DNA of 64,000 nt from Patescibacteria group bacterium. Its GTDB lineage: Bacteria; Patescibacteriota; Patescibacteriia; Buchananbacterales; UBA6539. Of the stretch, positions 1 to 20,146 are shown piece after piece. The translations under genes and the position numbers were made by a program. Location of the stretch: NCBI GenBank assembly GCA_041662625.1, contig JBAZSB010000001.1:246467-310466 (forward strand), given 5' to 3'. Numbering within the stretch: the first letter of the stretch is position 1; every line of letters starts with the position of its first letter. The notes under the pieces were generated by a model. That model had not been told where the DNA came from. It saw nothing but the letters and a program-made list of their open reading frames with translations, and ran no database searches.

Positions 1-1222
1 ACTGATCATCATCACCGGATAAAGGCGGTGACGATTTCTTTTTAAAGCCGGAAAAAAGAACCAGAGCTATAACTAAAGTAAAAATTAACCAGACAGTTAG
101 CCAACATTGGGGATAACCCAAAATAGTCGGTCCCAAAACTAAAATTAAGGTAATCCACCATAAATTTTTAGCCAAAGGATTCTTAGTCCTTTTGCCCCGT
201 GACCAGATGGCGATAATCATTAATAAATTTAAAACCAAAAGCAGCCAGATATAGATGAGGCAATTTTTTGAAAGGAAAGACAATTGATCAGTGGAGGTTG
301 TTTCATTCAATGGTTTATTTTGTAATTCTTCTTGTAATTCCCCTAATTCCCCCGCGGCTACTTTGCCAGTTGTTCCGGTTTTCCATTCCGGGCTAGAGAT
401 TGATGAAATTTTTCCTTCAAATTCATCCCCTGCCATTGGACCACCCGTACCGTCGGTTAAAGAGGTGGTAGTAAAACTTAATTCCGAACTGAAAATCCGA
501 GGAGCACCTCGCCATTGTTTTGGATCAGCCAGGGCAATAATCCGAAAGTAATAAGTAGTTTCCGGCTCCAGATTAGTCAGGGTAAGGGTGTGGTAAGTCT
601 TTAGCCCAAAATCTAGTGGCGTAGAACTAGCATAACCAAAATTAATATCGTAAGCGATTAATTTAAGACCCAAAATTGAGGTTTGGTCAAAAACGATTTG
701 GCTTGTAGCCAGGTAATTAGTAAACCAAGTAACTTTGACTGCGGTCGGAGAAATAGTTTCAATTGAATAATTGGAAATATTCATCATTGGGCCCATTCCC
801 CTCTCTTCACGAATTACTTGGTAATTAGCAAAATTAATGATTGCTTTTTCTTCAGCTGATAAACTAACGAAACTGCTGCTGCCGTTTATTGCCGCCCAAG
901 AATTTGGTACCTCAACTTTTACTTGATAATCATCGGGGACAAGATTAGTAAAATCATATTCACCTGCACTATTAGTCAATTGGGTTTTAATTAATTTTTC
1001 TTTTTGGTACAGAGAAACCCGCCAATCAGCTAGCTTTGTTTCATAAAGATCCAAATTGTTATTAAAATTTAGATCTTCAAAAACAAGCCCAGAAACCGCA
1101 CCGGCGGTCTGGGCTTGTAGAGGTTGGACACAAAGTAAAGAAAAGCTAATCAAGAGGAAAGGTAGTCCAACTTGAAGTATTATTATTAACTTTTTAGAGT
1201 AGCTATTAATTGGCCAGTTCAT
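1..1222 (-). CDS. Secreted surface protein, 3'-truncated at the window edge: signal peptide, SdrD-B-like domain, PAP-N-like Fn3 domain and the shared C-terminal two-TM anchor cassette
   Basis: Hand translation from ATG (rc at 1220-1222) gives MNWPINSYSKKLIIILQVGLPFLLISF...VSGLVFEDLNFNNNLDLYE...TVKVTWFTNYLATSQIVFD...TYYFRIIA...KNCLIYIWLLLVLNL...YPQCWLTVWL. There is no stop before position 1. The C-terminus is homologous to those of ORFs 1261..7479 and 7710..9059. Confidence 0.6.
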   Translation of the reverse strand, partial: MNWPINSYSKKLIIILQVGLPFLLISFSLLCVQPLQAQTAGAVSGLVFEDLNFNNNLDLYETKLADWRVSLYQKEKLIKTQLTNSAGEYDFTNLVPDDYQVKVEVPNSWAAINGSSSFVSLSAEEKAIINFANYQVIREERGMGPMMNISNYSIETISPTAVKVTWFTNYLATSQIVFDQTSILGLKLIAYDINFGYASSTPLDFGLKTYHTLTLTNLEPETTYYFRIIALADPKQWRGAPRIFSSELSFTTTSLTDGTGGPMAGDEFEGKISSISSPEWKTGTTGKVAAGELGELQEELQNKPLNETTSTDQLSFLSKNCLIYIWLLLVLNLLMIIAIWSRGKRTKNPLAKNLWWITLILVLGPTILGYPQCWLTVWLIFTLVIALVLFSGFKKKSSPPLSGDDDQ

Positions 1223-1260
1223 TGTCAGTATAAGGCTTCTCCCTCGCAACCAATAGAAGA

Positions 1261-4200
1261 TTATTTTTTACCAGAAAGAGTATTTGGGCTGACCAGTAAA
1301 ACGATTAAGTAGATAACCGCCAAAACTAGAATGACTGCTAGCCAGGTAATCAACCAGCATTGAGGATACCAGATTATTACGGAAACAATAGCAATTAGCG
1401 CCGGAACTAACCCGGAGTATTTGACTGATTTAGTACCATTTTTGCCCTTGAAGGCAATGATTGCTGAGGCAATTAAATCCAGAATAAGTAAGAGCCAGAT
1501 ATAATTACTGCAGTTTTGCGTTGTAGCCGCTGGGGGTGTGGTTTCATCAGTAGTTTCGCCCAGTACGGTCCCTTCTTCAGCTGGCTGTTCAGCTGGCGGA
1601 GTGGGTGGAGTTTCTGTGTCGGTTGGAGTTGTTTCTTCTTGATATTCAACTCCAGCAACATTACCACTTGGATTAGCAGGCGTTCCTTCAGCTGGTGGAG
1701 GAGGAGTTGTCTCTTCGGTTGGTGGGACTTCTTCTGTTGGCGGAATTGCCGGTGGCACTTCCTCTAAAGTGAAGGTTAATTCATCGCCATAGACTTCAGG
1801 CGAAGCGGCTGAAAGTGGCCGGAAATAATAGACTGTAGCTGGTAATAAACCGGTAATTGTAACTGAATGATTGAGAACTTTGGGATCAGTATCAGTTGTG
1901 GCAGTTGACCAGGCATAGCCATAATTTGGTGCATAGCCAATAGCGGGATGGGAAACTAAATCATAGATTACCCGACTGGTAGCTTCGCGGTTAGTCATCC
2001 AAGTTACGGTTACTGAGCCAACTTCAGCTCCTCTGGTTAATCTAATGGTATGAATAAGCAAGCTATAAGGAGTACTACCGCCACCGCCACCTCCGCCACC
2101 GCCGCTGCCACCGCAAGCACCACAGTCGGCAGGACAGGCAGAGCAGGTTTCATTGCCGTTGCAAGAGCCATCTTCACAATATGGTTCGGTTTGATTGCAG
2201 CCTTCGTCAATGTTACTGTCGCAATCATTATCAATGCCGTCGCCACAAACTTCAGTAGCGCCCGGGTTTATACCTCTATCAGAGTCATTGCAGTCGTTAC
2301 CGTTCGGGCAGTAAGCTTCATTATAGACGGAATAAGTATCTTCATCAGCATCAACACATTGGATATCATGGCATTCATTGTTTTCACAATATTGACCCGT
2401 GCTGCAATCCTCATCAGTATTACATTCCGGACCAATCGATTCAGTACATAAGCTGATAGTATAAATGTCACCACCACCCTGGCCAGCACCATCGTCCCGG
2501 ATATCGATCTTATAAGAGCCATCCCAATTAACTGTTCCCCGACCAGCTAATTTAGTGAATGAATCAAGCTGATTGATAGCAACCGTAAGAGAACTTTGGC
2601 CATTAATTAAATAATTTGAATCCTGTAATAAGCTGATTGGATAAGAAACGCCATCAATTTTTATAATATCCCACCAATCTTGCGAACAATTATCATGAGA
2701 GCCGATTGGACTATAGGTTCCGTGACTTAATGATAACTGCCCGCCAGTTACTGTTAGCCAATCGCTACCATCAACGCAGGCTTGGAATTCAATGCAATTG
2801 CCTGTCTGGTTTTGGACTAACACGCAAGCGGATGTGCAAGAATAATTTTCATTTGGTACTCCATCTTGTCCATCGCACTCTTCATTGCCATTATCTTGCG
2901 GTCCGCCGGTGCCAACACCATTGGGTGTTTGCTTAATGCCATCACCGCAGAAAGTTTGGTAATTAAAGAAGTTTATTCCACCAATTCCTTGGCCATCAGC
3001 CAAAGTGACATCCTGAGATAACGGGGTGGTATTAAGCCAGCCAGTAACTAATTCTTCATAAATCGTCCAGATACCGGCAGTCAAGGCATTAAAGCAATAT
3101 AACCCGCTATCGTTAGTTTGAGTCGAGCTTAAGGTGGTATCTTTAGACGCCCAAATTGTCCAGGCTGGGATGACTACATCATTATTATTAAATATTCCAT
3201 CTCGATCATAATCATTATATTTATAACCGCAGATACTATTGGGTTCAATATCCCCTAGCCAATCATTGCCGAAATTAACATAAACGGTTTGTTCTGGAAC
3301 AGCGGTTACATCCTGAAATAAATCAGTGATATTCTTCCAACCCGGCTGCATCTCTTCCTGAACTCGGTAATTACCTGGCGTGACATCTTCAAAGCAGTAA
3401 TTTCCACCTTCGTCAGTTACCCGGTAGTCAATAATGGTTTGGTCGGTAGCGCAATGTAAAGCTTGGACACCGTCGACATCAAAACCATCAGTCTCGGCTC
3501 CGAATATTGTGGCAAACTTATTGGAAGTGTCAGTTAACTTTAAGTATTTAGCCCAAGCCAGACTACCTAAATCAAAAGTGCTGTCTTGGCAACCTTCACC
3601 AGCTAGTTCAACCCAGCTACTACCGTCTTGAGAAGCGGAAACTTTGACTTTTTCCGGATAGCTGGCGCAGCTGGGACTGCCATATGAAGTTTCAACTACA
3701 TCAATGTCATCCCCTGCTTCATTAAGAATTAAATTATCAAAGCTTAAAACCAGTTCACCGCCAAAGCCCAAAGCAACAAATTCAACCGGATCGCTATTGG
3801 AATATTGAGCCGCTCCTAATGCTTTAGAAGGATCGGTTCGTTCAGTGATAATTGGTGTACCATTTTTTCGTGTGCCGGGATTATAGCTAACCACGCCATC
3901 GGCCCATTGTTCACCTTCAGTACAGAAAGAAAACTCGATTAAATTTATAGTCCAATTTGCCAATCCGGGTTCTTCATCACGCTGTCCGTTTTCATTCTGG
4001 TCATGCCATTTATAACCGCAAATTGAGCTTTCGCAATCCTCGTCAACATATCCGTCGCAATCATTGTCAAGCTCGTCGCCACAAAATTCTTTTTCGCCTT
4101 CAGTTGGCACGGCGGAACAAACTGCCGGACCAGCTGGATCTTGCGGGTCGCAAGCGTAAGTACCACTTTGTTGGCAAATGCCTTGGCCGGCAATACATTC

Positions 4201-7200
4201 ACTGCCGACGTTCCAGCCTTCATCAATTAAGTCATCACAGTCATTATCAACGCCATCGCAGACTTCAGTGGTACACTCCGGCGGAGTGGGAATACAGCGG
4301 ACGCTGACATTATCTAAAAATGTGCCTAAAGAATTAGAAGTACCGCCGTCAGCAAATTCCAGCAAAGTTGTATAGCCACTGGCGGTTAAATTATATTGAT
4401 AAGGTGACCAGTTCAGACTACTGCCGCCAGCACCGGTAAGCGTAGAAACTAGGTTACCATCCCAGTTAAAATTCAAGACGTTATCACTGCTGCCAGTATT
4501 TGGTCGCGGTGAAAAATTGAAACTGACTAAATAGTTATAACCGGGCCAAGTGTTTAATTCCTGAGAAATTTTCACTGAAGCCGGTTCGCCATCGCCAGAA
4601 CCATTAGGGCCGGCCCAATCGCCGTCTAATTCAACATATTGGCTGCCATCAGGAATCAAACCGGAGAATAAACCTGATCGATGTAATTCTAAAGTCGCTT
4701 CAGTTGGTCTGGTCTGGCCTGGATAAGAATCAGAAGAAACCCAATCGGTAATCCAACTGGTTAAAGATGGAAGAAATATATCCCATTTGTTGGGGTTAGT
4801 AACAATTGGGTTTTCAAAACTACGGTTAAGCACTAACTCAACATCCGGATCACAGGTTGGCGGTAAGCCACATTCGGGCGAACATTCAAACGAACCGTTT
4901 GGCCCGTCATCGCAGTCTTCATCGCCTTCTTTAATATAATTGCCGCATTCTGGGCATTCTTCGGAATAAGGAGATATGGCCACACCTTCGCTTGTAAAAT
5001 TAAAGGAGAAATGAGATTGGACTGTATGGCGTTCGGCAAAAAAGATGTCCACTACATTATGGCCAGTCAAATGTAAACTGCCGGTTTTAGTGGTTGGGGC
5101 ATGAATGCCGCCATTATCAACGACTAAAACGCCGTCTAGATAAACCCAGGCATCATCATCGGAAGTCAGAGTATAATTATAATCTCCTTCAGTCTCAACT
5201 GAAACTAAGCCGCTCCAGTGAGCACCGAAATGATATTCATGGCCATTATCGATTTCTTCGACTGCTATATCAAAAGGAAAGAAATTTTCACCAAAAGTTA
5301 TAGCATTATCAATTCTTGTAAATTTTAAATATTGTGAATCATACCAATCATCGGTATCCCAGCTACCCAGCGGATCGCCATGACCGTCATCCGGCCATTC
5401 ATTGCCAGGCAAGTTCATATCCTGGTGATCTCTTGAATAATTATAATATTGGCCATACCAGCCGCTGCCTTCAGTTAGCTCTTCACAAGTTAATTGTTCA
5501 AGGCTGCAACTGGCAGAACAACCATCACCATCAGCAATATTGCCATCATCGCAAGTTTCATCACCTTCAATTTCATTATTACTGCAAACTGGTCCGGTTG
5601 GCTGACAGGTCGGATCGTTAGCACAATCTGAATCAGCACAATCAACAAAAGTATCGCCGTCATTATCTATGGTATCAGTACAATTTTGTTCTGGTTCAAT
5701 GGTGCAATTTTCGGAACAGCCGTCGCCGTTAACAGTATTGCCGTCATCGCAGGCTTCATTGCCTTCAAGGGCATCATTACCGCAAACGCTTGGAGTCGGA
5801 CCAGTACAATCAGAATTACAATGGCCATAGACGCCGTTATATTGACTGCCATCATCACAGATTTCCCGACCATTAACTGCCCCATCACCGCAACTTTGCG
5901 TTGTTATACAACTTCCCCACTGACATTCATTGCAGGCTTTACTGCCATTATAACCAGTTTCGGTAAGACATTCATCTGGGGTTTGTTGGTCACAATTTTC
6001 TGATTGTTGATTAACAATATTATCACCGCAATATGGTACATATTCTAAAGTACAGCTTTGGGTACAAATATAATGCGGGGGTACGCCATCAAGGGTATCG
6101 CATTCTTCATCGCCGTTTTTGGTTCCATCGTTACAGCCTTCCTGGGCAACACAATTGCTCCAGTCCAGACAATCTGATTGGCAGGTTTTCTGACCGGCGT
6201 AAGCACCAACAGAACAAGTGTCAGTTTGGCCAACTTCGCAAACTTCACTGTAACCTGGGTAACCCTGATCTAAAATATTATTATTACAAATTGGTAAATA
6301 GTTACCAAAATCTTTATTGGTTAAATTCTGGCCTTCGCTCAGGGTAACACTGTATGATCCGCTTACCGGATAGGTTTGTTGGTAAGGCTGACTGCTCGGT
6401 TCAGCTCCTTCAGAGACAGTATAATTGCCCGGCAATAAACCAGAGAACTGATAACAACCATTACTGTCAGTCACTTGGTTATCCGAGGTATCGCCGCTTA
6501 AAACAATTGGCCAACCAACTAAGGTGCTGTCGCCGGTAATGCTGCTGTCTTTGGCTACATCAGAATATTTACAGCCAGAGATTGAACCATACTGACAGAT
6601 CTCTTCAGAGATTGAATTGTAAATACTTTCTAGATCAGTTTGACTGGGGGCAAAATAATAACTGCCACCAGTAGCGTTAGCAATATATTGCAGCATGGTG
6701 GTGTTAACATCGCTGCCTAAACCAATGGTAAATATTTTGTAACCTAAACCGGCGGCTTCGTCAGCTTTGGCTTTGGCGTAATTAACATCAGCTTGATTTT
6801 CACCGGAGCCACTGCCATAAGGTTTATTGGCTTTGCCGTCAGTCAAAAGAATTGCAACCTTAACCGCTTGCGGATTAGCCCGAACTGAACCTAGCTCATC
6901 GTTAGACAAATCAATACCGTCACCAATATTGGTTGCACCATTAGCCGCTAAAGCATCAACGGCGATTTGTGTTGCCGGATGATCAGTTGATAAACCTTTA
7001 TCCAAATTTGCTGTGGTAGCAAAAGAAACTAAACCAGACTGGTCGTTGAGTCCCAGCAAACTTAGAAAGGTATCGGCAGCGCTTTTAGCGGCGGCTAATT
7101 TATTTGGCGTAGGTGGTACTGCTGGCGTGTAATTATGAGGACAGCTAGCTACACCTTGATTGTTACATTCAGTCTGAGTTAATCCATTTTTGGTGTGTTT

Positions 7201-7479
7201 ATTCCAGCAACCCCATAAATCACTTTTATTTTTATAATATTCACATTTACTTTGGCTACCCGAACTACCACCTTCGTCCATACTGCCTGACCGGTCAATA
7301 ATCAATACAACGTCAAGGTCAGCATCGCACATGCTTGGCGGCAACGGCGTAGCGGAAACTGCTGTTGGTATAAAGGCGGCACCATTAACCGACCAGAGAA
7401 TGGTAACCAAAGAAACAAAAATAGAAAACATTTTGTGTTTTCTAGGCTTTGAATAAGTGGGTTTTCCCATAGTTTGCAT
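1261..7479 (-). CDS. Giant (2072 aa) secreted multidomain adhesin-like protein: vWA, Cys-rich Myxococcus-type and MopE-like repeats, SdrD-B-like, DUF642/CBM-like, PA14, poly-Gly, PAP-N-like Fn3, Pro/Thr/Glu stalk and C-terminal two-TM anchor
   Basis: N-terminal signal peptide. vWA MIDAS motif DRSGSMDEGG. PA14 motif GDYNYTLTSDDDAWVYLDG (about nt 5040-5300). SdrD-B-like SICGYKYNDYDRDG and GYKWHDQNENGQRD. MopE-like motif NPGATEVCGDGIDNDCD. Myxococcus-type repeat ...CDDGN..GDGCS..C. DUF642-like NRSFENP...QYVELDGD. Fn3 TVTWMTNREATSRVIY...TVYYFRP. C-terminus NCSNYIWLLL...YPQCWLITWL. Confidence 0.85.
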   Translation of the reverse strand: MQTMGKPTYSKPRKHKMFSIFVSLVTILWSVNGAAFIPTAVSATPLPPSMCDADLDVVLIIDRSGSMDEGGSSGSQSKCEYYKNKSDLWGCWNKHTKNGLTQTECNNQGVASCPHNYTPAVPPTPNKLAAAKSAADTFLSLLGLNDQSGLVSFATTANLDKGLSTDHPATQIAVDALAANGATNIGDGIDLSNDELGSVRANPQAVKVAILLTDGKANKPYGSGSGENQADVNYAKAKADEAAGLGYKIFTIGLGSDVNTTMLQYIANATGGSYYFAPSQTDLESIYNSISEEICQYGSISGCKYSDVAKDSSITGDSTLVGWPIVLSGDTSDNQVTDSNGCYQFSGLLPGNYTVSEGAEPSSQPYQQTYPVSGSYSVTLSEGQNLTNKDFGNYLPICNNNILDQGYPGYSEVCEVGQTDTCSVGAYAGQKTCQSDCLDWSNCVAQEGCNDGTKNGDEECDTLDGVPPHYICTQSCTLEYVPYCGDNIVNQQSENCDQQTPDECLTETGYNGSKACNECQWGSCITTQSCGDGAVNGREICDDGSQYNGVYGHCNSDCTGPTPSVCGNDALEGNEACDDGNTVNGDGCSENCTIEPEQNCTDTIDNDGDTFVDCADSDCANDPTCQPTGPVCSNNEIEGDETCDDGNIADGDGCSASCSLEQLTCEELTEGSGWYGQYYNYSRDHQDMNLPGNEWPDDGHGDPLGSWDTDDWYDSQYLKFTRIDNAITFGENFFPFDIAVEEIDNGHEYHFGAHWSGLVSVETEGDYNYTLTSDDDAWVYLDGVLVVDNGGIHAPTTKTGSLHLTGHNVVDIFFAERHTVQSHFSFNFTSEGVAISPYSEECPECGNYIKEGDEDCDDGPNGSFECSPECGLPPTCDPDVELVLNRSFENPIVTNPNKWDIFLPSLTSWITDWVSSDSYPGQTRPTEATLELHRSGLFSGLIPDGSQYVELDGDWAGPNGSGDGEPASVKISQELNTWPGYNYLVSFNFSPRPNTGSSDNVLNFNWDGNLVSTLTGAGGSSLNWSPYQYNLTASGYTTLLEFADGGTSNSLGTFLDNVSVRCIPTPPECTTEVCDGVDNDCDDLIDEGWNVGSECIAGQGICQQSGTYACDPQDPAGPAVCSAVPTEGEKEFCGDELDNDCDGYVDEDCESSICGYKWHDQNENGQRDEEPGLANWTINLIEFSFCTEGEQWADGVVSYNPGTRKNGTPIITERTDPSKALGAAQYSNSDPVEFVALGFGGELVLSFDNLILNEAGDDIDVVETSYGSPSCASYPEKVKVSASQDGSSWVELAGEGCQDSTFDLGSLAWAKYLKLTDTSNKFATIFGAETDGFDVDGVQALHCATDQTIIDYRVTDEGGNYCFEDVTPGNYRVQEEMQPGWKNITDLFQDVTAVPEQTVYVNFGNDWLGDIEPNSICGYKYNDYDRDGIFNNNDVVIPAWTIWASKDTTLSSTQTNDSGLYCFNALTAGIWTIYEELVTGWLNTTPLSQDVTLADGQGIGGINFFNYQTFCGDGIKQTPNGVGTGGPQDNGNEECDGQDGVPNENYSCTSACVLVQNQTGNCIEFQACVDGSDWLTVTGGQLSLSHGTYSPIGSHDNCSQDWWDIIKIDGVSYPISLLQDSNYLINGQSSLTVAINQLDSFTKLAGRGTVNWDGSYKIDIRDDGAGQGGGDIYTISLCTESIGPECNTDEDCSTGQYCENNECHDIQCVDADEDTYSVYNEAYCPNGNDCNDSDRGINPGATEVCGDGIDNDCDSNIDEGCNQTEPYCEDGSCNGNETCSACPADCGACGGSGGGGGGGGGSTPYSLLIHTIRLTRGAEVGSVTVTWMTNREATSRVIYDLVSHPAIGYAPNYGYAWSTATTDTDPKVLNHSVTITGLLPATVYYFRPLSAASPEVYGDELTFTLEEVPPAIPPTEEVPPTEETTPPPPAEGTPANPSGNVAGVEYQEETTPTDTETPPTPPAEQPAEEGTVLGETTDETTPPAATTQNCSNYIWLLLILDLIASAIIAFKGKNGTKSVKYSGLVPALIAIVSVIIWYPQCWLITWLAVILVLAVIYLIVLLVSPNTLSGKK

Positions 7480-7709
7480 AGGTTTTTGAGATAATTTAGG
7501 TAAAATTAGTAAAAATATATAATAAATAGCTTGTTTCTCTTTCTACCATATTTACTCATAATTTGTCAATAGAGAGTATTTTTATAGCTAAAAACTGATT
7601 AATTTGAAACAAAATTTGAAAAATTAGTTTTTAACCTGAAAAACCATTTCTCAAAAATGGCTTAAAAATAATAATGATGAATAATAGCCAAAGCTAGTAA
7701 TAATTAAAA

Positions 7710-9059
7710 TTATTTTTTACCCAAAAGAGTATTGGGGCTAGTAAAAAGAATAATTAAATAGACAACCGCTAGGACTAAAACTATTGCTAACCAAGTAACC
7801 AGCCAGCATTGAGGATACCAGATTATTACTGAAACAATAGCAATTAGCGCCGGAACTAACCCAGAGTATTTGACTAGCTTATTACCATTTTTACCTTTAA
7901 GGGCAATAATTGCCGCTGTCACTAAATTCAGAACAAGTAAAAGCCAGATGTAATTAATGCAATTTTTTGGCGTAGCGGCTGGCTCTTCTTCGGTAGTTTC
8001 GGCAAGAACTTTCCCTTCTTCTTCAGTCGGCTGCTCCTTTCCGGTAACTACTGTGGAAGTCGGCGTTATTTCTTCTTGAAAGCCAACCCCAGCTACTGTA
8101 CCAGCCGGATTGGTTGGCGCAGTTGGGTTGCCAGATATTGGCGGAGTTTCAGCCGGCGGCAGGGTTTCTTCTGCCGGTGGAACTGGTAATCCAGCTGATT
8201 CGCCTGTAGTTTTGAAAGTTAAACTGCGGCTGACCGTATCAGGCGAAGCGTGGGAAATTACGCGATAATAATAAGTTGTGCCGGGCGTTAAGCCGGTCAA
8301 AGTCACGGAATGAAAAGTAACTTTGGTTAAATCATCAATCGTTGAATGGGCATAACCGTAATTCGGTGGACTGCTGAAATCAAAAGTGTGCGCTTCATTT
8401 TCCGCGCCCCAAATCACCCGGCTGGTAGATAAATAATTAGTCTGCCAAGTGAGTGTCGCCGTAACAGTCATAACATTAATTTCCGCTTCATTGAAAATCG
8501 TCAGACCGGCTGGCACACTGCCACCACCACCGCTACCGCCACCAGCTCCTCCACCGCCGCCTTGGCCGGGCGGAGTAACGGGTGTCTGCTCGCCTTGAAA
8601 ACCGACTAAGATATCGAAATTATTCAAAATTTTATTTTTGTAATCATTGCCGGCGCTGGAATTAAAAGTCACTATTAAATCATAAGTTGTACTCGCGTTG
8701 TTTGCCAAATTGGATAAAAATGTCTCGCCTTGATTGAAAAATTCAGTTAAACTTTTATTTAGAATCGTTTGGCTCCCCTCTTTTATTTCTAAATTTAAAG
8801 CATTGCCAAAATGATTTGGGTCATTGACATTAATCGCTTCAATAGCCAAGGGCTTTGATACGCCGCTTTTGTTTTTAATTTCAATGTGAGCGGTTACTGC
8901 TTGGCCGGGCAAAAAATTCACCGCGCCAAAAAGCGGATTGGGATTAAAGATGACAACTATATTACTTTCGGTCGCTAAAACTGGGCCGGCAAACATAAAT
9001 CCGGCTATCAGGGCAATAGCGGTAATTCCGATAAATTCTAATTTTTTTATTCTAAGCAT
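7710..9059 (-). CDS. Secreted surface protein (449 aa) with signal peptide, Gly-rich linker, PAP-N-like Fn3 domain, Pro-rich stalk and the shared C-terminal two-TM anchor
   Basis: The signal peptide, GQGGGGGAGGGSGGGG linker, Fn3 segment TLTWQTNYLSTSRVIWG...TTYYYRVIS and the C-terminal 85 aa are about 85% identical to the giant protein at both protein and DNA level. Confidence 0.8.
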   Translation of the reverse strand: MLRIKKLEFIGITAIALIAGFMFAGPVLATESNIVVIFNPNPLFGAVNFLPGQAVTAHIEIKNKSGVSKPLAIEAINVNDPNHFGNALNLEIKEGSQTILNKSLTEFFNQGETFLSNLANNASTTYDLIVTFNSSAGNDYKNKILNNFDILVGFQGEQTPVTPPGQGGGGGAGGGSGGGGSVPAGLTIFNEAEINVMTVTATLTWQTNYLSTSRVIWGAENEAHTFDFSSPPNYGYAHSTIDDLTKVTFHSVTLTGLTPGTTYYYRVISHASPDTVSRSLTFKTTGESAGLPVPPAEETLPPAETPPISGNPTAPTNPAGTVAGVGFQEEITPTSTVVTGKEQPTEEEGKVLAETTEEEPAATPKNCINYIWLLLVLNLVTAAIIALKGKNGNKLVKYSGLVPALIAIVSVIIWYPQCWLVTWLAIVLVLAVVYLIILFTSPNTLLGKK

Positions 9060-9070
9060 ATTGATTATTT

Positions 9071-11596
9071 TTAAGCGGCAGGAGCAGCGTCAGTCGGCGC
9101 TGGTGGCGCTGGATCAGGACCGGGAGCGGACTCTACTGGCGCGGGCGGCTCAACCGTAATCGCCGGCTCCGGCTCAAGGGCCGGATTTTGTTCGCTTAAT
9201 TCCGCCGGGGTATCCGGAATATTTTCCGTAGTATCAGCCGGCTGGTCGTTAGAATCGCCGGTTTCATTGCTAAAATTGTCTGCGGGATTATCAGCGGGCA
9301 GCTCAGGTTCAGTCACCAAACCGGTATGATCAGCTGGATCAGTAATAGTAGTTTCTTCTTCCGGCACGGTTGTTTCCAAAGGTGTATCAGTTGGTGGTTC
9401 AGCTACTGTTTCAGCCGCCTCCTGACCGGAATTATCACCAGTATTTCCCGAATCGGCCGGGATCTCAATGGCTGGCTCGGTATTACCGGTATCGGCCGGC
9501 GGATCAGTATTTTCCGGGGTAGTTGTTGCTTCATCTTGTGTTATTATAGGCGTTTCAAAAATCGATGGCTCTTCAATCGGGAACAACTCCATCCCTTCTG
9601 GCAGCAAGCCCAAAAATCTCAGCATTTCTATTTCTTCGGGCAAAAGCAAACCGTAATCAATGGGCGGACAAAAATCTTGGTCTGATTGATCCCAGGCCTG
9701 AACCATAAAGTTTTCCGGCCCATGGGCCACCACCTTAACTCTGGCTGTATGCGAAGGCGCATAATAACAACCGCCATTACCGTCATCAAAGCAAAGCGGC
9801 ACCCGGAAATCATAAGTTCCGCTATTATTGATTCCTCTCACGACATTACCCCAAGTGGCACCACTATCTTTGGAATACCAAAGGTCAATAGTTAAAGCGG
9901 AATCAGGGCCGTTAGGATTGGTTGCGGTCCAGCTTATATTATGGGTTCGGCCCACCCACCAAATTTCGCCGCCATTAGGCGATAAAACCGTAACTTGGGG
10001 CAAACCTAAATCGATGAAATCCGACGGCTGATCCGTATCAAGACCCAAAGGCACTCGGCCCAGCATATGGCCTTCTGTCACATCCGTGCAGCCAGGATCC
10101 CAAACGTTTAAATTGTAGTTTGGCCAATCTGAATCAGGCGCGCCCCAGTTCATCTGATCAATAATTTTGCCGGCGGGATTTTTTAAAATAAGCATGTCGG
10201 CGGTGTTGTTGAGGCTATTGCCGATTGGGCTACTTAAAACAATTCTGGTAACACCAGTGGGAATTTCCCAATAATTCCAGGTAGTATCTTGATTAGTAAT
10301 AATGGCAAAGCCGCCGGCGGGAATTAGAGTAGAATCTGGTAAAATATCGCAAGCGTTATTGTCGCAAATTTTCCAATTTGATAAATCAACAGAACCAGAG
10401 GCCGGATTATAAAGTTCAATCCACTCGTTGTCAGCTTCATCACCGTGGCTTGAATCCACATCATAATAAACTTTATTTATGGCCACATAACTCCAGTCAC
10501 CGGAGGAAACCGTATCAGCAATTGTTTCTTCATCGGTAAAACCTTGGCTTTCGTTGGTAAAATCCGTCTGCCAACCAAAAACAGTATATTTGAATTCGCA
10601 GGTTTTATTTTGCAGTGAAGAAGGCGCATCAGCTGGCAAGCCGATATCTAGCTGCCATTCATTGGTTAAAATTGAAAAGATGCTTGGCGTGTAAGTAAAA
10701 TCCAGTAAATTTCCCGAGTATACTAAAGTTCCGTTAAGGTAAGCATCAACATCAAGGGCTTGGCAAAAATCAGTGTCGCCTGATGTTTGTTCGATATTCA
10801 TCTGATATTGAAAATTCAAAAGGCCGATATTAATAATATCAATCCACCGCCCGACAGATTCGTCAGGTGTTATTTTTCGGGTTAGGCCGTCATCAAATTT
10901 GTTATTAATTTCATCAATGCAGCCATTGATAACCGACGGACTGAAAACGCTTAGTTGTCCGGCTAATATATTATTGGCTTCAGTCAAAACTTCGCCGGCC
11001 GTCATGTCTTCGCACGGACTGGCTGGTTCGTTGGCATAATAATTTTCCAGCGTGCTGGTGTTGACGCTAAAATTGGGATCATAAACGTCAAAGCCGAGGT
11101 TAAGCGTTAGGGCAACAACTTGGCCGGCCAAGACTCCGGCTTCGGTATCAGTCGGGTTTTCATGGTTTTGCGAAAATGGCGCCGGTGGTCCCCCGCTTGG
11201 CAAAAAATTTTCTATATCCGCGCTGGTTGCAAAATGGGCAGAATAGCCAAACCCCCCGCCGATAGTCAAACCAGTGGGAAAGGCCAGATCAAAATTAGCG
11301 TCGCGGTAAACGGCTGGGTTATCACCATGAGCAGAGGCTCCCCAACCGCCTTGGGTTTGGGTGCGAAAGCCGTCTGAGCGGGTAAAATCCAAAGAAAAAT
11401 CCAGGGTACTGGCGGTAAAATTACCATCTGAAGTTTCCAAATCGTTATAATAGGCAATGGTCTGACCAATTGCCGAAAGTCCGGTCCAATTAAGGCCAAA
11501 CAATAACAAAATCGCTACTACTTTTAATAATGGTTTTTTTACCAAATCAAAATTAGTTTGTTTTTTCTGGATTTTTCTTTTTCTTGATTTCCGCAT
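9071..11596 (-). CDS. Secreted 841-aa protein with camelysin/TasA-type (SipW-cognate) N-terminus, lamin-tail domain, BNR/Asp-box and an acidic Pro/Thr/Glu-rich C-terminal tail
   Basis: N-terminus ...LSAIGQTIAYYNDLETSDGNFTASTLDFSL matches the camelysin-type mature N-terminus. LTD motif EWIELYNPASGSVDLSNWKI. BNR motif SKDSGATWGN. The start overlaps the sipW-like ORF by 44 nt, so an alternative TTG/GTG start is possible. Confidence 0.7.
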   Translation of the reverse strand: MRKSRKRKIQKKQTNFDLVKKPLLKVVAILLLFGLNWTGLSAIGQTIAYYNDLETSDGNFTASTLDFSLDFTRSDGFRTQTQGGWGASAHGDNPAVYRDANFDLAFPTGLTIGGGFGYSAHFATSADIENFLPSGGPPAPFSQNHENPTDTEAGVLAGQVVALTLNLGFDVYDPNFSVNTSTLENYYANEPASPCEDMTAGEVLTEANNILAGQLSVFSPSVINGCIDEINNKFDDGLTRKITPDESVGRWIDIINIGLLNFQYQMNIEQTSGDTDFCQALDVDAYLNGTLVYSGNLLDFTYTPSIFSILTNEWQLDIGLPADAPSSLQNKTCEFKYTVFGWQTDFTNESQGFTDEETIADTVSSGDWSYVAINKVYYDVDSSHGDEADNEWIELYNPASGSVDLSNWKICDNNACDILPDSTLIPAGGFAIITNQDTTWNYWEIPTGVTRIVLSSPIGNSLNNTADMLILKNPAGKIIDQMNWGAPDSDWPNYNLNVWDPGCTDVTEGHMLGRVPLGLDTDQPSDFIDLGLPQVTVLSPNGGEIWWVGRTHNISWTATNPNGPDSALTIDLWYSKDSGATWGNVVRGINNSGTYDFRVPLCFDDGNGGCYYAPSHTARVKVVAHGPENFMVQAWDQSDQDFCPPIDYGLLLPEEIEMLRFLGLLPEGMELFPIEEPSIFETPIITQDEATTTPENTDPPADTGNTEPAIEIPADSGNTGDNSGQEAAETVAEPPTDTPLETTVPEEETTITDPADHTGLVTEPELPADNPADNFSNETGDSNDQPADTTENIPDTPAELSEQNPALEPEPAITVEPPAPVESAPGPDPAPPAPTDAAPAA

Positions 11597-12071
11597 AAAT
11601 TTTTCTGGCTTCGTCGAAAATTATAGCTAAGGCCGGCACGATGATTATTAGCAGGAATCCCAGCGGTTTTCTGGCAAAATCAACGGCATAACCGGCAAAG
11701 GGAACGGAAAACAGAACTTTGCCGTGAATCTCGGCTGGCGTAACCTCTCTGGTATCTGGCGCGTTATTAGCGTCGCCCTTGGTGATATAAATCGGCTTAC
11801 CTTCCTGAACGCGAATGTCATTAATCCGGTGGGTAATCGGCGTTTGGGTTTTACCGATTTTGCCGAAAGTAATGATGTCGCCGATCTGATAATTAGTTGC
11901 CGGCTTTACCATTACAATACTGCCGGTATGAATTGCCGGCTCCATTGAACCGGAAAGCACAGTCAGAACCTTGAAATTACCGGTCAGGGGCAAAATCGAA
12001 ATCACCAAAAGCAAGGCGATCGCCGCAATCAGCGCAATAAATATGTAATAAACAACTTTAAAGATTTTCAT
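11553..12071 (-). CDS. sipW: Signal peptidase I, ER/archaeal type (SipW class, S26B)
   Basis: N-terminal TM helix followed by VLSGSMEPAIHTGSIVMVKP (SGSMEP catalytic-Ser motif of Sec11/SipW-type SPases). Size 172 aa. Sits directly adjacent to camelysin/TasA-like genes, as in Bacillus tapA-sipW-tasA. Confidence 0.8.
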   Translation of the reverse strand: MKIFKVVYYIFIALIAAIALLLVISILPLTGNFKVLTVLSGSMEPAIHTGSIVMVKPATNYQIGDIITFGKIGKTQTPITHRINDIRVQEGKPIYITKGDANNAPDTREVTPAEIHGKVLFSVPFAGYAVDFARKPLGFLLIIIVPALAIIFDEARKIYAEIKKKKNPEKTN

Positions 12072-12095
12072 GGATTTTCATGGATTATTTTATTC

Positions 12096-14111
12096 TTACC
12101 AGCCAAAATCTGGTAAATCTGGTGGCCAATCAATTGTACAAGTCGGATAATTTAGTCCCGGCATATAGCAAATACAGCCGGTTTGACCGGTATTGGGATC
12201 ACAATATCCATACGATGAACTTGTGCAAGTAGGCAGGATTGTAGGATTATGCGCACAACCAGCTATGCCGCAAATGTCGGCTGTACAGGCGTTACTGTCA
12301 TCGCAATTATTCGGACAATTTGGATTGAGGTTGCAGCTGACTACGCCGGCGCTGCAAGTACCGCTAAATGTGCATTGTAAAGAAACTAAGCTCACATGCT
12401 GGCAAATGGTTGCCGAGCAGGAATCAGCAGTACAGCTGTTATTGTCATTACAATCGGCACTGGAAGTGCAGCCGCCCGGAGGAATTAGTGGCGCAATGCA
12501 TGCTCCAATTGCGCTGCAGGTATATCCGTTGCAACCGCCGCCTAACATACAGGTTAAATTTGAGCACGATGCGCCCACATTGGGACTTGCCTCGTAAACA
12601 CAGCCCCACATGTCTCCGCCCGCGCCGATGCAAGTCGATAATAGACAGGAATTCATCGCCTGGCTAGCGCATATATTATTACTCGGCGTATGAACGCAGC
12701 TGCCATTCACGCAAGTATCAACAGTGCAAGCTACGCCATCATTATTACAATCGTTATTACTTGTACATTCAGGCGCTGGTGGCAGACAATCGGCCGCACA
12801 GGTGGCAGTCGTTTCCGAAGGCGAGCAAGTGCCATCCGGACAGACCGGGTTACAATCTAAACTATTTAGAAAACAACCATAATCAGCGCAATCGATTTGG
12901 CCATCACCTTCATTGTCTATACCGTCATGGCAGTTAGTTTCCGGGCTGCAAACGCCATCTTCATCAGTTGCGCCATCACAGTCATTATCAAATGAATCAC
13001 AAGCTTCCACACCGTTGTTTGTCGGGGTGCAATCACTGCAATTATTATCAGTACTACCGTCGCAATCATCGTCTAAGCCATTGTCACAGATTTCAGTTCC
13101 GGCTTGATTATTTTGCGTACATTGAAGCGCCCCGCCAGTACAAGTTAAAGTTCCAGCTGAACAAACACCCGATAAGCCCGTGTTGCACACGCTTCCGCCG
13201 CCTGGATTTCCTTCATCAACAACTTGGTCGCAATCATCATCTAGGCCATTACAGACTTCTGTGGTTGGCGTGCAAGTGGGCTCGCATGCTAAATCGCTGC
13301 CGTTACAATCTTCATCAATATCATTGCCGCAGATTTCGGTTGTCGGAGAGCAGCCGCCGGTAGCGTTACAAACAAATTGGGGCAAATTTCTGGCTTGAAC
13401 CGCGGTAAAGATAATATCCGCTAGTAAACTGTCAGTTTGGATTTCATTGCCGGTGGCCAAAGGCACATTCCATTTAACGCCCAAACAATGAGTAGTGCCG
13501 CCTTGCATTGGCGCGCCTAAAGATGAATCGGCAATCGGCCAGTAACCCGCCTGGACGGTCTGGTTTTGAATTACATAAGTTTCGTCTTCATCTTTGATAT
13601 TATTACAATTATGCTCACCGGCTCCGTTATCGTTCCAAATTGTGAAAAATAAATTATTTTGCAGTTCACCTTCGCCCGCGCCGCAGGTGGAGTCAACCTT
13701 GTTTTCCGGACTGTCGCAACCGTTGTCATCTTTAACTAAATTGGCAATTTCGGCGCACATCCAGGCGTCATTATTATCCACGTGCAAGCTGATAGTGTCT
13801 TCACCACTATCCCCGGGCTTAACATCCAAAAGATTAAAATAAAGTTCACCATTCAAATCTTTGGCTGACCAGGTACAGAAACATTCCTCTTGTGTCCCCT
13901 GCCAGAAATACTTTCCTGATCCGCTCGGATCTAAAATGCAAACTTTGCCGTTGTAATGGCAGGTGTTATCAATTTGTAAATTGAATTTTCCGGCTTTAAA
14001 AGTATTTCCGACTGAGCTTTCGGTGTCGGAAAAATAGGCAATGGTTCCGCCAATGGCAATGGCAGCCACAATTGCGATGACACCGAGACTGATTACGATT
14101 TTTTTCTTCAT
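12096..14111 (-). CDS. Camelysin/TasA-like domain (Peptidase M73 family) fused to a long C-terminal Cys-rich MopE-like repeat region
   Basis: MKKKIVISLGVIAIVAAIAIGGTIAYFSDTESSVGNTFKAGKFNLQID is the SipW-cognate signal plus TasA-like N-terminus. Residues ~250-671 carry repeated C..DxDCDG..DE motifs (CGNDIDEDCNG, CNGLDDDCD, CDNGLDDDCDG, CDSFDNDCDG). Confidence 0.8.
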   Translation of the reverse strand: MKKKIVISLGVIAIVAAIAIGGTIAYFSDTESSVGNTFKAGKFNLQIDNTCHYNGKVCILDPSGSGKYFWQGTQEECFCTWSAKDLNGELYFNLLDVKPGDSGEDTISLHVDNNDAWMCAEIANLVKDDNGCDSPENKVDSTCGAGEGELQNNLFFTIWNDNGAGEHNCNNIKDEDETYVIQNQTVQAGYWPIADSSLGAPMQGGTTHCLGVKWNVPLATGNEIQTDSLLADIIFTAVQARNLPQFVCNATGGCSPTTEICGNDIDEDCNGSDLACEPTCTPTTEVCNGLDDDCDQVVDEGNPGGGSVCNTGLSGVCSAGTLTCTGGALQCTQNNQAGTEICDNGLDDDCDGSTDNNCSDCTPTNNGVEACDSFDNDCDGATDEDGVCSPETNCHDGIDNEGDGQIDCADYGCFLNSLDCNPVCPDGTCSPSETTATCAADCLPPAPECTSNNDCNNDGVACTVDTCVNGSCVHTPSNNICASQAMNSCLLSTCIGAGGDMWGCVYEASPNVGASCSNLTCMLGGGCNGYTCSAIGACIAPLIPPGGCTSSADCNDNNSCTADSCSATICQHVSLVSLQCTFSGTCSAGVVSCNLNPNCPNNCDDSNACTADICGIAGCAHNPTILPTCTSSSYGYCDPNTGQTGCICYMPGLNYPTCTIDWPPDLPDFGW

Positions 14112-14142
14112 AGATTTTTGCTGATTGAAAATTTAAATTAAA

Positions 14143-14169
14143 ATATTTGGTGGCTGCCTTAGTCTCACT
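14143..14169 (-). terminator. Hairpin (possible terminator/attenuator) between TasA-like paralogues 2 and 1
   Basis: ggctgccttag-tctca-ctagggcagcc with an A/U-rich tail on the minus strand. Confidence 0.5.
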
Positions 14170-14296
14170 AGGGCAGCCTTTACCCCCACACCAAATAAGT
14201 CTAGTGCATTTTAAACTTATTTAGTGTAGGGGAAAATCCCCTAAGCACTCCCCCTTTCACCAAAAATAATTGGTGTGGGGGTAAATATTTCAAGTA

Positions 14297-15586
14297 TTAG
14301 TAGTCTAAGTCTTGAATCGGAGGCAGAGCTACACTATCACAACTGAAGTTTTCGTTGTTTCTTTGCTGAGTGGCATACAAAACAATGTCAGCAAGCAGTT
14401 GATCTGTTTGCGCGTTGTTTTGATTACCGCTACCCGAGCATGAAATAGTTCCGTCCAAAGCAACTGTTTGAGTTCCAACACACCAGGCAATTCCCAAATT
14501 ACCAGAGCCATTTGCCAAAATCGGTAATCTGCCAATTGCTGGAAGAGTATCAAACGGCCCATTATATAGGAGTGGTGACTCTGTACCCGGTTCATATACT
14601 CCATCGCCATCATCTTCCCAAACAACTAGATTAAGGTATTGAGACAATTCTCCTGGTTCACCGGTATCTCCTGAAGCTGTTTCCGGTTCAGCTAAGCTGT
14701 TCTCTAAATTCTGCTCATTATTTACCAGCATACAAACATAAGCGTCATTGCTTTCAACATGCAGAGAAATTACATTAGTTCCCCAGTCGCCCGGTTTAAC
14801 ATCACCGAAATTCCAGAAAGTGTCGCCTAAGCCGAGATCTCTCTCACCCCAAAGCGTACAAATGCCGCCGCCTTCGAACTGGCTGGTGCAGTTAAGTTCC
14901 ATAACGCTGATATCATCCAAATATCCGCCGTAGGAATTATTGGTCCCTAAATCGGAAAACATCACTTTTGTGGCAGCATCGGTGGCAATAAAGTTATAGG
15001 TATATGCTGTCCAAACCGTATTTGAACCGCCGGCAGAAGCTGCGCCAATGGTGTCATTTACCAAAATGGTGCTGTCGCTCACGACTTTGACTATGGCGCC
15101 AATGGTGTTATCGCCAGCCGGACGATTCGGGCGGGGCGAATACCAAAAGGTCAGGCGGTACTGCTGGCCGGCAACTGTTGTTAAAGTTTGGGAAATAGCA
15201 GATGAATTATTACTGTCTAATTCCGCTAACTGGCTGCCGCCATGTGGCGCACCCGCGGCGTTGTCCTGGATTTCTAGACCCGCGCCAGATTCCACTGTCC
15301 AAGAAGTTAGGCTGGCATCAGGATAAATTGCCCAACCGCCTGATGGCACGTTTGGCGTCTCAAAGCCGCCATTTAAAATAAGATTACTGCCAGTCTCTAC
15401 ACAAATGCCCACACAATTATGGCCATTATAGGTCTGTTTGGTGTGATCGACTTTTAAGTCAATCGAACCGGCGGTAAAGGTATTACCGCTGGAAATTTCC
15501 GTGTCGCTGAAATAAGCCACGGTTGCCCCGATTGCCAAAGCGGCGACGACCGCGATGACACTCAAGCTTAGTACGATTTTCTTCAT
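14297..15586 (-). CDS. Camelysin/TasA-like protein with inserted DUF642/CBM-like beta-sandwich domain
   Basis: N-terminus MKKIVLSLSVIAVVAALAIGATVAYFSDTEISSGNTFTAGSIDLKVD. Insert contains LNGGFETPNVPSGGWAIYP...LTSWTV. The conserved TasA-like C-terminal half (ISLHVESNDAY...QTDQLLADIVLYATQQRN) is shared with the paralogues. Confidence 0.8.
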   Translation of the reverse strand: MKKIVLSLSVIAVVAALAIGATVAYFSDTEISSGNTFTAGSIDLKVDHTKQTYNGHNCVGICVETGSNLILNGGFETPNVPSGGWAIYPDASLTSWTVESGAGLEIQDNAAGAPHGGSQLAELDSNNSSAISQTLTTVAGQQYRLTFWYSPRPNRPAGDNTIGAIVKVVSDSTILVNDTIGAASAGGSNTVWTAYTYNFIATDAATKVMFSDLGTNNSYGGYLDDISVMELNCTSQFEGGGICTLWGERDLGLGDTFWNFGDVKPGDWGTNVISLHVESNDAYVCMLVNNEQNLENSLAEPETASGDTGEPGELSQYLNLVVWEDDGDGVYEPGTESPLLYNGPFDTLPAIGRLPILANGSGNLGIAWCVGTQTVALDGTISCSGSGNQNNAQTDQLLADIVLYATQQRNNENFSCDSVALPPIQDLDY

Positions 15587-15637
15587 AGTTTTTGTTGATT
15601 TATTAATTTTTAAAATAATTATTTAAAACCTTTATCG

Positions 15638-15664
15638 GTTGCCTTAGCGAGGCTAAGGCAACCT
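15638..15664 (-). terminator. Hairpin (possible terminator/attenuator) between TasA-like paralogues 3 and 2
   Basis: ggttgccttagc-gag-gctaaggcaacc perfect 12-bp stem with an A/U-rich tail on the minus strand. Shares the gccttag core with the 14143 hairpin. Confidence 0.55.
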
Positions 15665-15688
15665 AAAAGATTTCTAGTATTATCGGTT

Positions 15689-16960: not shown

Positions 16961-16987
16961 ATCGGTTTAATGATTATTGCGGGTTAA

Positions 16988-18347: not shown

Positions 18348-19430
18348 TTAATTTGTCAATTCTAATCCACCACTAGTATAGCGGTTGGAGGCATTCCATA
18401 AAAGCCAGCCATAACCGCCAGAGTCATTATTGGCCTGAATTTGGGTTTTAATCATTTCCGGCGTATAAACCGCGCCTAAATCAAAGGCTTGCAGCCAAGG
18501 CCGAATTTTGGTCTGGCTGGAGCCTAATTTATCTTTTGCCTTAATTAAGCTGCGATAAATTATTTCATAAGGATGTTCAGCTGGATTATTGAAGTCTTCA
18601 AACCCGGCTGGGTAGTGGGAGGGGTAAACCATCGGGCAGATATAGTCGAAATTGCCCACGGCGTCTTCCAGTCTTTGGCCAATATTTAAGCCATCGGACC
18701 GCCATAAAACCATGCCGAAAAGATCAGCCGAAGTTAAGGCCGGATAAAAAACTAAGGTCTTTTTAACATACTGATAAAACTCAGCCATCACCTTAGCCTT
18801 GCCCTCGAAAGTGGCATTGTCTAGATTAGCGTAGACAATTTGTTTAATGTTGCCGTCTGAAGGAAAACGGATGTAGTCAAAATTGACTTCAGCAAATCCG
18901 AGTTTAATTGCTTCTTTAGCTAAATCCAAGTTATATTCCCAAACCTGCTTTTGGGTTGGGTCAACCCAGGCTAAACCTTTGTAATCCCGCCAGATTCCCC
19001 CGCCCTTGGCTTTCAGGGCAATGTCTGGCTGCTTTTCGGCCAAATAAGGATCCTGGAAGACGACAATTCGGGCAATCGGGTAAATCTCCTGCTTTTTTAA
19101 TTCTTTTAGCCAACTAGCCAGGTCCGGGATGCGAATTTCTTCGGCATCAATTTCTTCGGCCAAAGGGTTAGAAGTATCAAAAAAGACCTTGCCGCTATAA
19201 TCTTTAAGGTCAATAACAATGGAATTTAGTTCAGTACTTTTGATTAAATCAACCAATTCCGCTCGCCTTGTCTTGGCGCCGGCCGTATAAGCGGTCAGAT
19301 AAATCCCTTTATTTTCGATTTTTTCTGGTTTTTTCAAAACCTGGTAGGTTGGTTGCTGATTAAAGGTAAAAACCAAAGAAAAAAGAATTACTGGGATAAT
19401 CACTAATAAGTTGACTAAAGGTAAAAACAT
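18348..19430 (-). CDS. Putative glycoside-hydrolase-like TIM-barrel protein (DUF4015/GHL-type) with N-terminal TM anchor
   Basis: N-terminal hydrophobic helix. Motifs IKGIYLTAYTAG...IVIDLKDYSG...EVNFDYIRFP resemble the GHL10/DUF4015 family. The family assignment is uncertain. Confidence 0.45.
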   Translation of the reverse strand: MFLPLVNLLVIIPVILFSLVFTFNQQPTYQVLKKPEKIENKGIYLTAYTAGAKTRRAELVDLIKSTELNSIVIDLKDYSGKVFFDTSNPLAEEIDAEEIRIPDLASWLKELKKQEIYPIARIVVFQDPYLAEKQPDIALKAKGGGIWRDYKGLAWVDPTQKQVWEYNLDLAKEAIKLGFAEVNFDYIRFPSDGNIKQIVYANLDNATFEGKAKVMAEFYQYVKKTLVFYPALTSADLFGMVLWRSDGLNIGQRLEDAVGNFDYICPMVYPSHYPAGFEDFNNPAEHPYEIIYRSLIKAKDKLGSSQTKIRPWLQAFDLGAVYTPEMIKTQIQANNDSGGYGWLLWNASNRYTSGGLELTN

Positions 19431-19922: not shown

Positions 19923-20085
19923 AATATCCACTTCTCGGGGACCCGCCTACGTCCCTTCGGGACTACGGCGGGCAGGCAGAATCTGGCGTCTCCCGACGTC
20001 GCCCATTGCTTTATTTTTATGGCGAGTCGGGATGCCGACCTTACGTCGGCACTACTTAGTCAACAATGTTCACTTCTCGGGGACC
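19923..20085. repeat. About 21-bp direct repeats (aat[ag]t[tc]cacttctcggggacc at 19923..19943 and 20065..20085) flanking a 121-bp insert; the right copy is the 3' end of tRNA-Gln
   Basis: Seen directly. The 3' acceptor segment of tRNA-Gln (ggtccccgagaagtg) is duplicated 142 bp away. The intervening DNA carries the 26-nt motif gaatctggcgtctcccgacgtcgcc, also present at 37598..37623. Confidence 0.6.
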
Positions 20086-20146
20086 AGGAATCGGACCTGG
20101 ATTAGCAGAGCCAGAATCTGCCGTCCTACCATTAGACGATCCCCGA
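20076..20146 (-). tRNA. tRNA-Gln (anticodon CUG)
   Basis: Manual fold of the minus-strand RNA: acceptor tcgggga/tccccga with U1-A72 and G73 discriminator (the Gln identity set), D-arm gtc/gac, anticodon arm gcaga-ttCTGgc-tctgc, T-arm ccagg-tccgatt-cctgg. CCA is not encoded. Confidence 0.7.

Follow-up and report, generated by a model that had tools for sequence, protein, structure and literature searches.

We analysed a 64,000-nucleotide stretch (hereafter the window) of the 922 kb contig JBAZSB010000001.1 from a Patescibacteria group bacterium (assembly GCA_041662625.1; Buchananbacterales, UBA6539), at the start of which three adjacent genes, here called A, B and C, encode surface proteins that end in the same type of hydrophobic C-terminal tail. 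This tail is the subject of our report. All three genes, and all of the features described within them, lie on the minus strand. Gene A (2..1222) encodes a signal peptide, an SdrD B-like domain, an Fn3 domain, a stalk and the tail; it is cut by the window start, with 407 of its 415 codons inside the window and the 3' 8 codons beyond, and its full protein is P0054 (415 aa). Gene B (1261..7479) encodes a giant protein of 2072 aa with 92 Cys, in which a signal peptide is followed by VWA, PA14, DUF642-like and SdrD-B/SpaA-like domains and Cys-rich repeats, and then by a poly-Gly linker, Fn3 domain, stalk and tail. Gene C (7710..9059; 449 aa) encodes a signal peptide, an N-terminal domain with a predicted TasA-like beta-sandwich fold (8568..8969), and again poly-Gly, Fn3, stalk and tail. 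The NCBI product names of B and C reflect their VWA and Fn3 domains only.

Aligned with one another, the three C-terminal regions run in the same order, from Fn3 through stalk to a hydrophobic tail that has NC..YIWLLL and YPQCWL in each. The Fn3 domains are of the Pur_ac_phosph_N type (PF16656), as the initial annotation of this DNA had proposed, and score 37.1 bits in A (467..793; Pfam E 4.7e-9), 33.7 bits in B (1768-2073) and 40.7 bits in C (8208-8516), all above the Pfam gathering cut-off of 30. The ordered cassette that was described for all three proteins is thus present as far as Fn3, stalk and tail are concerned, but its poly-Gly linker is found only in B (2074-2112) and C (8517-8567), and the stalk of A is rich in Thr, Gly, Ser and Glu and not in Pro. 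The stalk of B is Pro/Thr/Glu-rich (1516..1767; 84 aa, net charge -18), and that of C spans 7965..8207 (81 aa, net charge -11). The tails themselves occupy 2..265 in A (aa 320-407 seen), 1264..1515 in B (aa 1989-2072) and 7713..7964 in C (aa 366-449); the tail of A reads, in order, NCLIYIWLLLVLN, a basic loop, LWW...GP, YPQCWL..WL and then GFKKK.

Within the otherwise low-complexity stalks we found one or two copies of a short motif, G-x-[VI]-[AL]-[GSA]-x-E-[FY]-x-E (e.g., GTVAGVEFAE), which among the long open reading frames (ORFs) of the window occurs only in A, B and C. Gene A has the degenerate form GKVAAGELGE of G-x-V-A-G-V-E-F (338..367), B has GNVAGVEYQE (1636-1665) and GTVLGETTDE (1543-1572), and C has GTVAGVGFQE (8073-8102) and GKVLAETTEE (7986-8015).

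A small, uncatalogued tail family

A hidden Markov model (HMM) built from the three tails, a check that the initial annotation had suggested, was scored against 1.84 billion representative proteins (cluster representatives) and matched 48 representatives, with E-values from 1e-38 to 3e-4 and each match at the extreme C-terminus, which is far beyond chance. All family members with a named source are Patescibacteria or Candidatus Buchananbacteria. An exhaustive HMM scan was needed to reveal the family, as word-indexed homologue searches with a single tail or with the 49-tail alignment returned nothing. A scan of a genome collection with a narrow three-tail pattern found one locus, and is not a taxonomic census.

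The tails had no match in Pfam-A or NCBIfam even at E<=10, a Foldseek search of the tail model against PDB gave noise only (best E 5.3), and literature searches on the motif strings and on surface anchors of the candidate phyla radiation (CPR) returned nothing relevant. Two apparent matches were rejected: DUF4064 on A, which scored 19.9 bits against a cut-off of 32.1 and E 4.4 when the tail was scanned alone, and the hits of a PDB sequence search with C, which were only Gly-Ser linkers of single-chain variable fragment (scFv) constructs, aligned via the poly-Gly stretch.

Conservation was assessed on the alignment of 49 tails, in which only two columns are invariant, C2 and C53. The first directly precedes helix 1, usually as N-C, while the second lies in a Y-P-x-C-W-L turn, so that the YPQCWL motif of the window generalises across the family to Y-P-x-C-W-L-x-x-W-L. 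Conservation reaches at least 90% in six further residues (W35, P45, Y50, L55, W58 and L59). Position 13, midway along helix 1, is Asn (N13) in 88% of members and Asp or Glu in the others. Helices 2 and 3 are as strongly conserved as the region of the first Cys.

The constant tail is preceded by varied passengers, including VWA, PA14, SpaA-like, DUF11, Ig-like, SdrD-B and TasA-like domains, and a few members (P0040, P0044-46) have no Fn3 domain; the tail is therefore an autonomous module. The stalk motif accompanies it in 38/49 family members, with 55 copies compared to 5.3 expected from shuffled sequences, and the copy nearest the tail usually stands 29-51 residues before the tail Cys. We conclude that the tail is a real, lineage-restricted and so far uncatalogued C-terminal domain of ~85 residues, which defines a very small family.

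Tail architecture and proposed membrane anchoring

Column-wise hydropathy revealed three hydrophobic segments in the tail, in place of the two-helix anchor that had been assigned to these proteins. Helix 1, of ~17-18 residues, is followed by a loop of 13-14 residues with a Lys/Arg frequency of 0.4-0.8, and helix 2, of ~16 residues with a 92%-conserved Pro, by the four-residue Y-P-x-C turn; helix 3, of ~20 residues, is followed by a KKK-type cluster (Lys/Arg ~0.5) and often by a Pro-rich extension, which reaches ~90 residues in A-type members. AlphaFold2 (AF2), run on the 49-sequence alignment, also returned three helices (2-24, 36-48 and 54-75), with a mean predicted local distance difference test score (pLDDT) of 74. 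Membrane topology commonly follows the positive-inside rule. Combined with this rule, the strongly acidic region ahead of helix 1, evident in the net charges of the B and C stalks, and the basic clusters after the helices predict an N-out, three-pass, C-in arrangement, which would place both invariant Cys at the outer face of the membrane. The conserved positions also form faces: helix 1 has Y/I/W-L-L-N, helix 2 its Pro and helix 3 W-L..W-L..T-L, and in helices 1 and 3 the conserved residues recur at i/i+3-4. These faces suggest specific packing, either within one tail or between tails.

The distribution of Cys across the family bears on the role of the invariant pair. Protein C has exactly two Cys, both in the tail, and A has three, the third being in the signal peptide; among the small family members, the tail pair represents the only Cys of the mature protein in 22/28. 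The complete giant members have even numbers of ectodomain Cys (90, 50, 36, 58, 54, 44, 26, 28 and 80). Given that the 90 ectodomain Cys of B fall in recognised disulfide-repeat domains, this organism forms disulfides outside the cell. An intramolecular disulfide from the start of helix 1 to the turn between helices 2 and 3 is most likely and the simplest reading of the pair.

We consider it somewhat probable that the tail is an autonomous, lineage-restricted membrane anchor that holds its protein permanently through three membrane passes and is not a cleaved sorting signal. This is favoured by the three conserved helices, the second invariant Cys, the lack of any sorting-signal match, the lack of a nearby processing enzyme and the variety of passengers. 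Under such a mechanism, the protein would be exported via its N-terminal signal peptide until tail helix 1 stopped translocation; the Lys/Arg-rich loop would be kept in the cytoplasm, helices 2 and 3 would be inserted as a hairpin with the tight Y-P-x-C turn outside, and the basic, often Pro-rich C-terminus would remain inside. A disulfide between the two invariant Cys could then lock the three helices into a compact bundle, while the acidic stalk (70-85 residues) would carry Fn3 and the variable adhesin-like or TasA-like passengers through the cell wall to the surface. FtsW, Mur ligase and penicillin-binding protein (PBP) genes are present in the window, and the genome encodes peptidoglycan synthesis. 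That the hold is permanent and that the stalk spans the wall is inferred, as are the topology and the disulfide.

Surface proteins held uncleaved in the membrane by a simple C-terminal hydrophobic tail, with the ectodomain extending through the wall, are known from other bacteria, for example ActA of Listeria. An uncleaved C-terminal hold in the cytoplasmic membrane is what we propose for the tail as well, but ActA-type anchors are single helices with little conservation, whereas the tail is a conserved three-helix family domain with an invariant Cys pair.

An alternative is that the tail is a new sorting signal, in which a dedicated enzyme encoded elsewhere would recognise N-C or Y-P-x-C, cleave the protein and attach it via Cys to lipid or wall, as has been proposed for signals of the MYXO-CTERM type. 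We regard this as rather unlikely. The known C-terminal sorting signals have a short tripartite build with only one helix, and those that contain Cys (the MYXO-CTERM class) comprise a Cys motif, one transmembrane segment and an Arg-rich cluster, and are processed by Rce1-like proteases. The tail resembles the latter in that it closes secreted surface proteins whose passengers vary and is present in several paralogues per locus, and in its first third, where a Cys that is invariant in 49/49 members stands at the start of a hydrophobic segment of ~18 residues that is followed by a Lys/Arg cluster. It differs in that its basic residues are mostly Lys and not Arg, and in that the basic cluster is followed by two more helices and a second invariant Cys, over ~85 residues in total, with helices 2 and 3 conserved as the first Cys is. 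None of the MYXO-, JDVT-, Synerg- and CGP-CTERM models (NCBIfam release 20) was among the hits at E<=10, and the Cys parity described above fits a Cys-Cys pair better than one modified Cys.

The comparison with LPXTG signals and sortases leads to a similar result. As in sortase substrates, the tail belongs to adhesins of a probably monoderm bacterium, is preceded by a Pro/Thr/Glu-rich region that leads into a C-terminal hydrophobic segment and basic residues, and follows SdrD B-like, SpaA-like and VWA passengers typical of such substrates. However, an LPXTG-like motif (regular expression LP.[TSA][GAN]) was found in none of A, B and C, the LPXTG model TIGR01167 did not match the tails at E<=10, and three hydrophobic segments over ~85 residues take the place of a single helix with a short basic end. 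Likewise, neither a PEP nor a PGF motif occurs in the last 120 residues, and PEP-, PGF- and GlyGly-CTERM had no NCBIfam hit at E<=10. The view that the tail does not match the known sorting signals is therefore upheld.

The initial annotation had also called for a search for a co-occurring sortase or exosortase-like enzyme. Neither the 64 kb window nor the inspected related loci, with flanks of up to 10 kb on either side of the gene, yielded a sortase, exosortase, rhomboid or CPBP (PF02517) gene, in a scan that covered window ORFs of at least 120 aa (excluding antisense overlaps of longer genes), the neighbours of the metagenome loci and two Pfam-annotated loci; for a 922 kb genome, this outcome is suggestive. 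Of the two roles that had been left open for an unrecognised domain, anchoring or sorting, the results agree with the first, a conserved and anchor-like domain with diverse passengers, while the three conserved helices and the lack of an enzyme nearby speak against the second. There is so far no support for a new sorting mechanism.

Several points weigh against a permanent anchor. Cys, helix and basic cluster also typify Rce1-processed signals, so that cleavage or lipidation at the first Cys is possible, and a processing enzyme may be encoded elsewhere, the search having read 64 kb of a 922 kb genome. The N-out, three-pass, C-in topology has hydropathy and the positive-inside rule as its only sources, and the confidence of the AF2 tail model is moderate. 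Finally, the conserved stalk motif has no role in the anchor model.

Divergence of the copies and a probable past exchange between B and C

The three copies had been described as near-identical, a description that goes too far. At the protein level, the tails of B and C are 80% identical, their Fn3 domains 49-50% and their stalks 51-64%, while the tail of A shares 37-42% identity with either. The DNA identity of about 85% reported between 1264-1520 and 7713-7970 was 80.5% (207/257) when recalculated, and the repeat as we delimit it is 81% identical over 277 nt (1257-1533 against 7706-7982). The diverged third copy placed at 1-260 is barely detectable in DNA: gapped alignment of the A copy gave 55-60% identity compared to 51 +/- 2% in shuffled sequence, and blastn gave no hit between A and B or C.

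We also considered whether the repeats could result from an assembly artefact, or whether the likeness could be a chance resemblance of hydrophobic C-termini. Two independent short-read assemblies do break inside B, as ENA k141_1629411 and JGI Ga0172379_10027320 both end at window position ~6997 in its Cys-rich repeat region, which is therefore hard to assemble; the position suggests a repeat-induced assembly break. However, the copies differ at 19% of DNA positions and hence are not collapsed duplicates, an ENA contig (100% identity) and a JGI contig (99.56%) independently cover the C tail and the junction into B, and in the contig of a related organism gene A again comes after the B tail (77.7% identity). 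Chance is contradicted by E-values down to 1e-38 and by the two Cys retained in all 49 tails. Both possibilities are thus refuted, with practically no probability left to them, and the collapse against which the initial annotation had cautioned did not occur.

Different parts of gene C have different closest relatives. Its Fn3 domain is closest to the C-type orthologue P0012 (65%, vs. 49% to B), but stalk and tail have B as their nearest relative (64% and 80%) and share only 26% and 45% identity with P0012. Synonymous divergence between B and C declines along the gene (Fn3 1.56, stalk 1.27, tail 0.68), and in a clustering of tails C joins B and the B orthologue of the related contig L005 (79-84%), apart from other C-type tails. 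Gene C is thus a mosaic, and the results support one gene conversion between B and C, which would be as old as the split of the two sampled genomes or older. The sample is small, however, and codon bias may depress synonymous divergence in hydrophobic segments. As a present-day substrate for homologous recombination, the repeat is weak and at best marginal, the longest identical runs between B and C being 32 and 27 bp. Cassette swapping, which the initial annotation had linked to these repeats, is consequently supported as a past exchange between B and C but hardly as a current process.

The variable island and the biology of the tail

The genes upstream of C, all on the minus strand, form the remainder of a variable island. 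A lamin-tail-domain (LTD) protein with an ...IAYYND motif (9071-11596) overlaps by 44 bp (11553-11596) the gene of an archaeal-type (SipW-type) signal peptidase I (11553-12071), whose TIGR02228 match scores 131.2 bits, above the cut-off of 51.85 (E 2.8e-38). Beyond it lie the genes of four secreted proteins that carry SipW-type signal peptides (12096-14111, 14297-15586, 15689-16960 and 16988-17719); these signal peptides are near-identical, ending in ...GATVAYFSDTE, and at the shared 5' ends of the genes we found the repeat family D1 (13939-14106, 15417-15584 and 17550-17717). A DUF4015 gene (18348..19430, minus strand) represents the conserved left border of the locus, and the backbone in which the locus is embedded has the order FtsW, L25, DnaX, DUF4015, [locus], CAP-domain membrane protein, histidine kinase, PfkB, Pta, AckA, MurJ and LepA.

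In the window, an island of ~16.5 kb (1261-17719), comprising the SipW cluster, the LTD protein, C and B, lies between DUF4015 and A, and comparable islands with a giant B-type gene are present in L006, L010, L011 and L012. In six other loci (L003, L007, L013, L014, L017 and L018), an A-type gene directly follows DUF4015; thus A is the core member of the locus, and B and C are accessory genes with the same module. A CAP (SCP/PR-1) membrane protein is encoded directly downstream also in L011 and L012, where the giant B-type gene replaces a missing A-type gene, and its domain was confirmed by Pfam in L005 (2130-3326), L017 (11358-12458) and L018. We considered the CAP-domain gene as a partner of the tail proteins, but since it is part of the long syntenic backbone, its adjacency is uninformative.

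The island recalls the TasA/TapA/SipW system of Bacillus (PMC10151520; PDB 8aur) in that it encodes a SipW-type peptidase and proteins with the corresponding signal peptides, and the N-terminal domain of C has the predicted TasA-like beta-sandwich of the TasA/camelysin superfamily. Protein C differs from that system in having no hit to PF12389 (Peptidase_M73) or to the SipW-type signal peptide model TIGR04088, and no ...TVAYFSD motif at its N-terminus. The comparison concerns the passenger of C and its neighbourhood and not the tail, as TasA and TapA have no membrane-spanning C-terminus.

The stalk motif, written GTVA|GVEF, is similar to GATVA|YFSDTE, where SipW is predicted to cleave the proteins encoded upstream. 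In locus L012, however, the SipW-cluster proteins carry FAAFEAHVINV while the stalk motif is unchanged (GVVAGVEFEE), and this lack of co-variation weakens the idea that the stalk motif is a copy of the SipW cleavage region.

These surroundings raise the possibility, which we regard with some doubt, that the tail is an assembly unit as well as an anchor, with N13 and the Trp/Leu face of helix 3 pairing with other tails or with a membrane partner. Such a platform could cluster the ectodomains of A, B and C, serve as the base of TasA-like fibres, or couple the surface to the cytoplasm via the Pro-rich extension. The polar Asn that 88% of members have midway along helix 1 and the regular spacing of conserved residues on helices 1 and 3 are consistent with this, as are the adjacency of three tail-bearing genes, the combination in C of a TasA-like fold and the tail close to the SipW gene and the four proteins that carry signal peptides of this type, and the long Pro-rich extensions of A-type members, which would be cytoplasmic. 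The CAP-domain membrane protein immediately downstream, in seven compared metagenome loci as well as in L017 and L018, could likewise be a component, but carries little weight for the reason given above. Moreover, packing within a single tail could explain the conserved faces, and many genomes have an A-type gene alone, with no island beside it.

A bolder proposal, to which we attach a low probability, is that tail and stalk motif together form the recognition module of an undescribed surface-assembly system of Patescibacteria. The tail would then be either a Cys-dependent sorting signal with its own enzyme or a membrane base for docking TasA-like fibres or the adhesins with which these episymbiotic cells attach to hosts; the stalk motif would serve as a cleavage element or one that resembles a donor strand.

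Elsewhere in the window, we recorded features that are separate from the tail genes. A 41-nt repeat (83%) with a GC-rich palindrome occurs at 19978-20018 and 37598-37638, in both cases just downstream, on the minus strand, of a tRNA gene (tRNA-Gln, 20075-20147, and tRNA-Glu, 37733-37806), and could be a terminator or processing element common to both. In a 53-nt direct repeat (85%), one copy lies at the 3' end of a prmC-like gene (49976-50028) and the second 323 nt downstream (50299-50351). Guanine-cytosine (GC) content rises to 0.515-0.52, compared to ~0.41 elsewhere, at 32001-34000 and 44001-46000, which coincide with two genes of sugar modification, one for a DegT/DnrJ-type aminotransferase (32769-34061) and the other for a GFO/IDH/MocA oxidoreductase (44738-45805), that were possibly gained from a different organism. 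An 857-aa protein (51533-54106, minus strand) has a TrwB/TraG/VirD4-type coupling-protein domain and could belong to a type IV secretion or DNA-uptake system, or be what is left of one.

Returning to the three-pass anchor that we favour, its interest is tied to the lifestyle of the lineage. Patescibacteria (CPR) are ultrasmall, and according to one preprint (bioRxiv 10.1101/2024.11.25.624915) every cultivated member grows attached to other microbes, while little is known of the way in which hosts are bound. The tail is a marker for a small number of large, adhesin-like proteins of the cell surface that a conserved locus encodes, and the pattern C-x3-IW-x-LL-x-LN ... YP-x-CWL-x2-WL provides a sequence handle with which these proteins can be sought in metagenomes. 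The family is narrow and of specialist interest, and it leaves general understanding unchanged: C-terminal anchoring of surface proteins is known, and what is new is a three-helix domain with an invariant Cys pair. As a rare example of a conserved multi-pass C-terminal anchor, the tail would merit a Pfam or NCBIfam entry, and as a small membrane domain it is testable, with both the invariant Cys pair and the stalk motif open to direct experiments.

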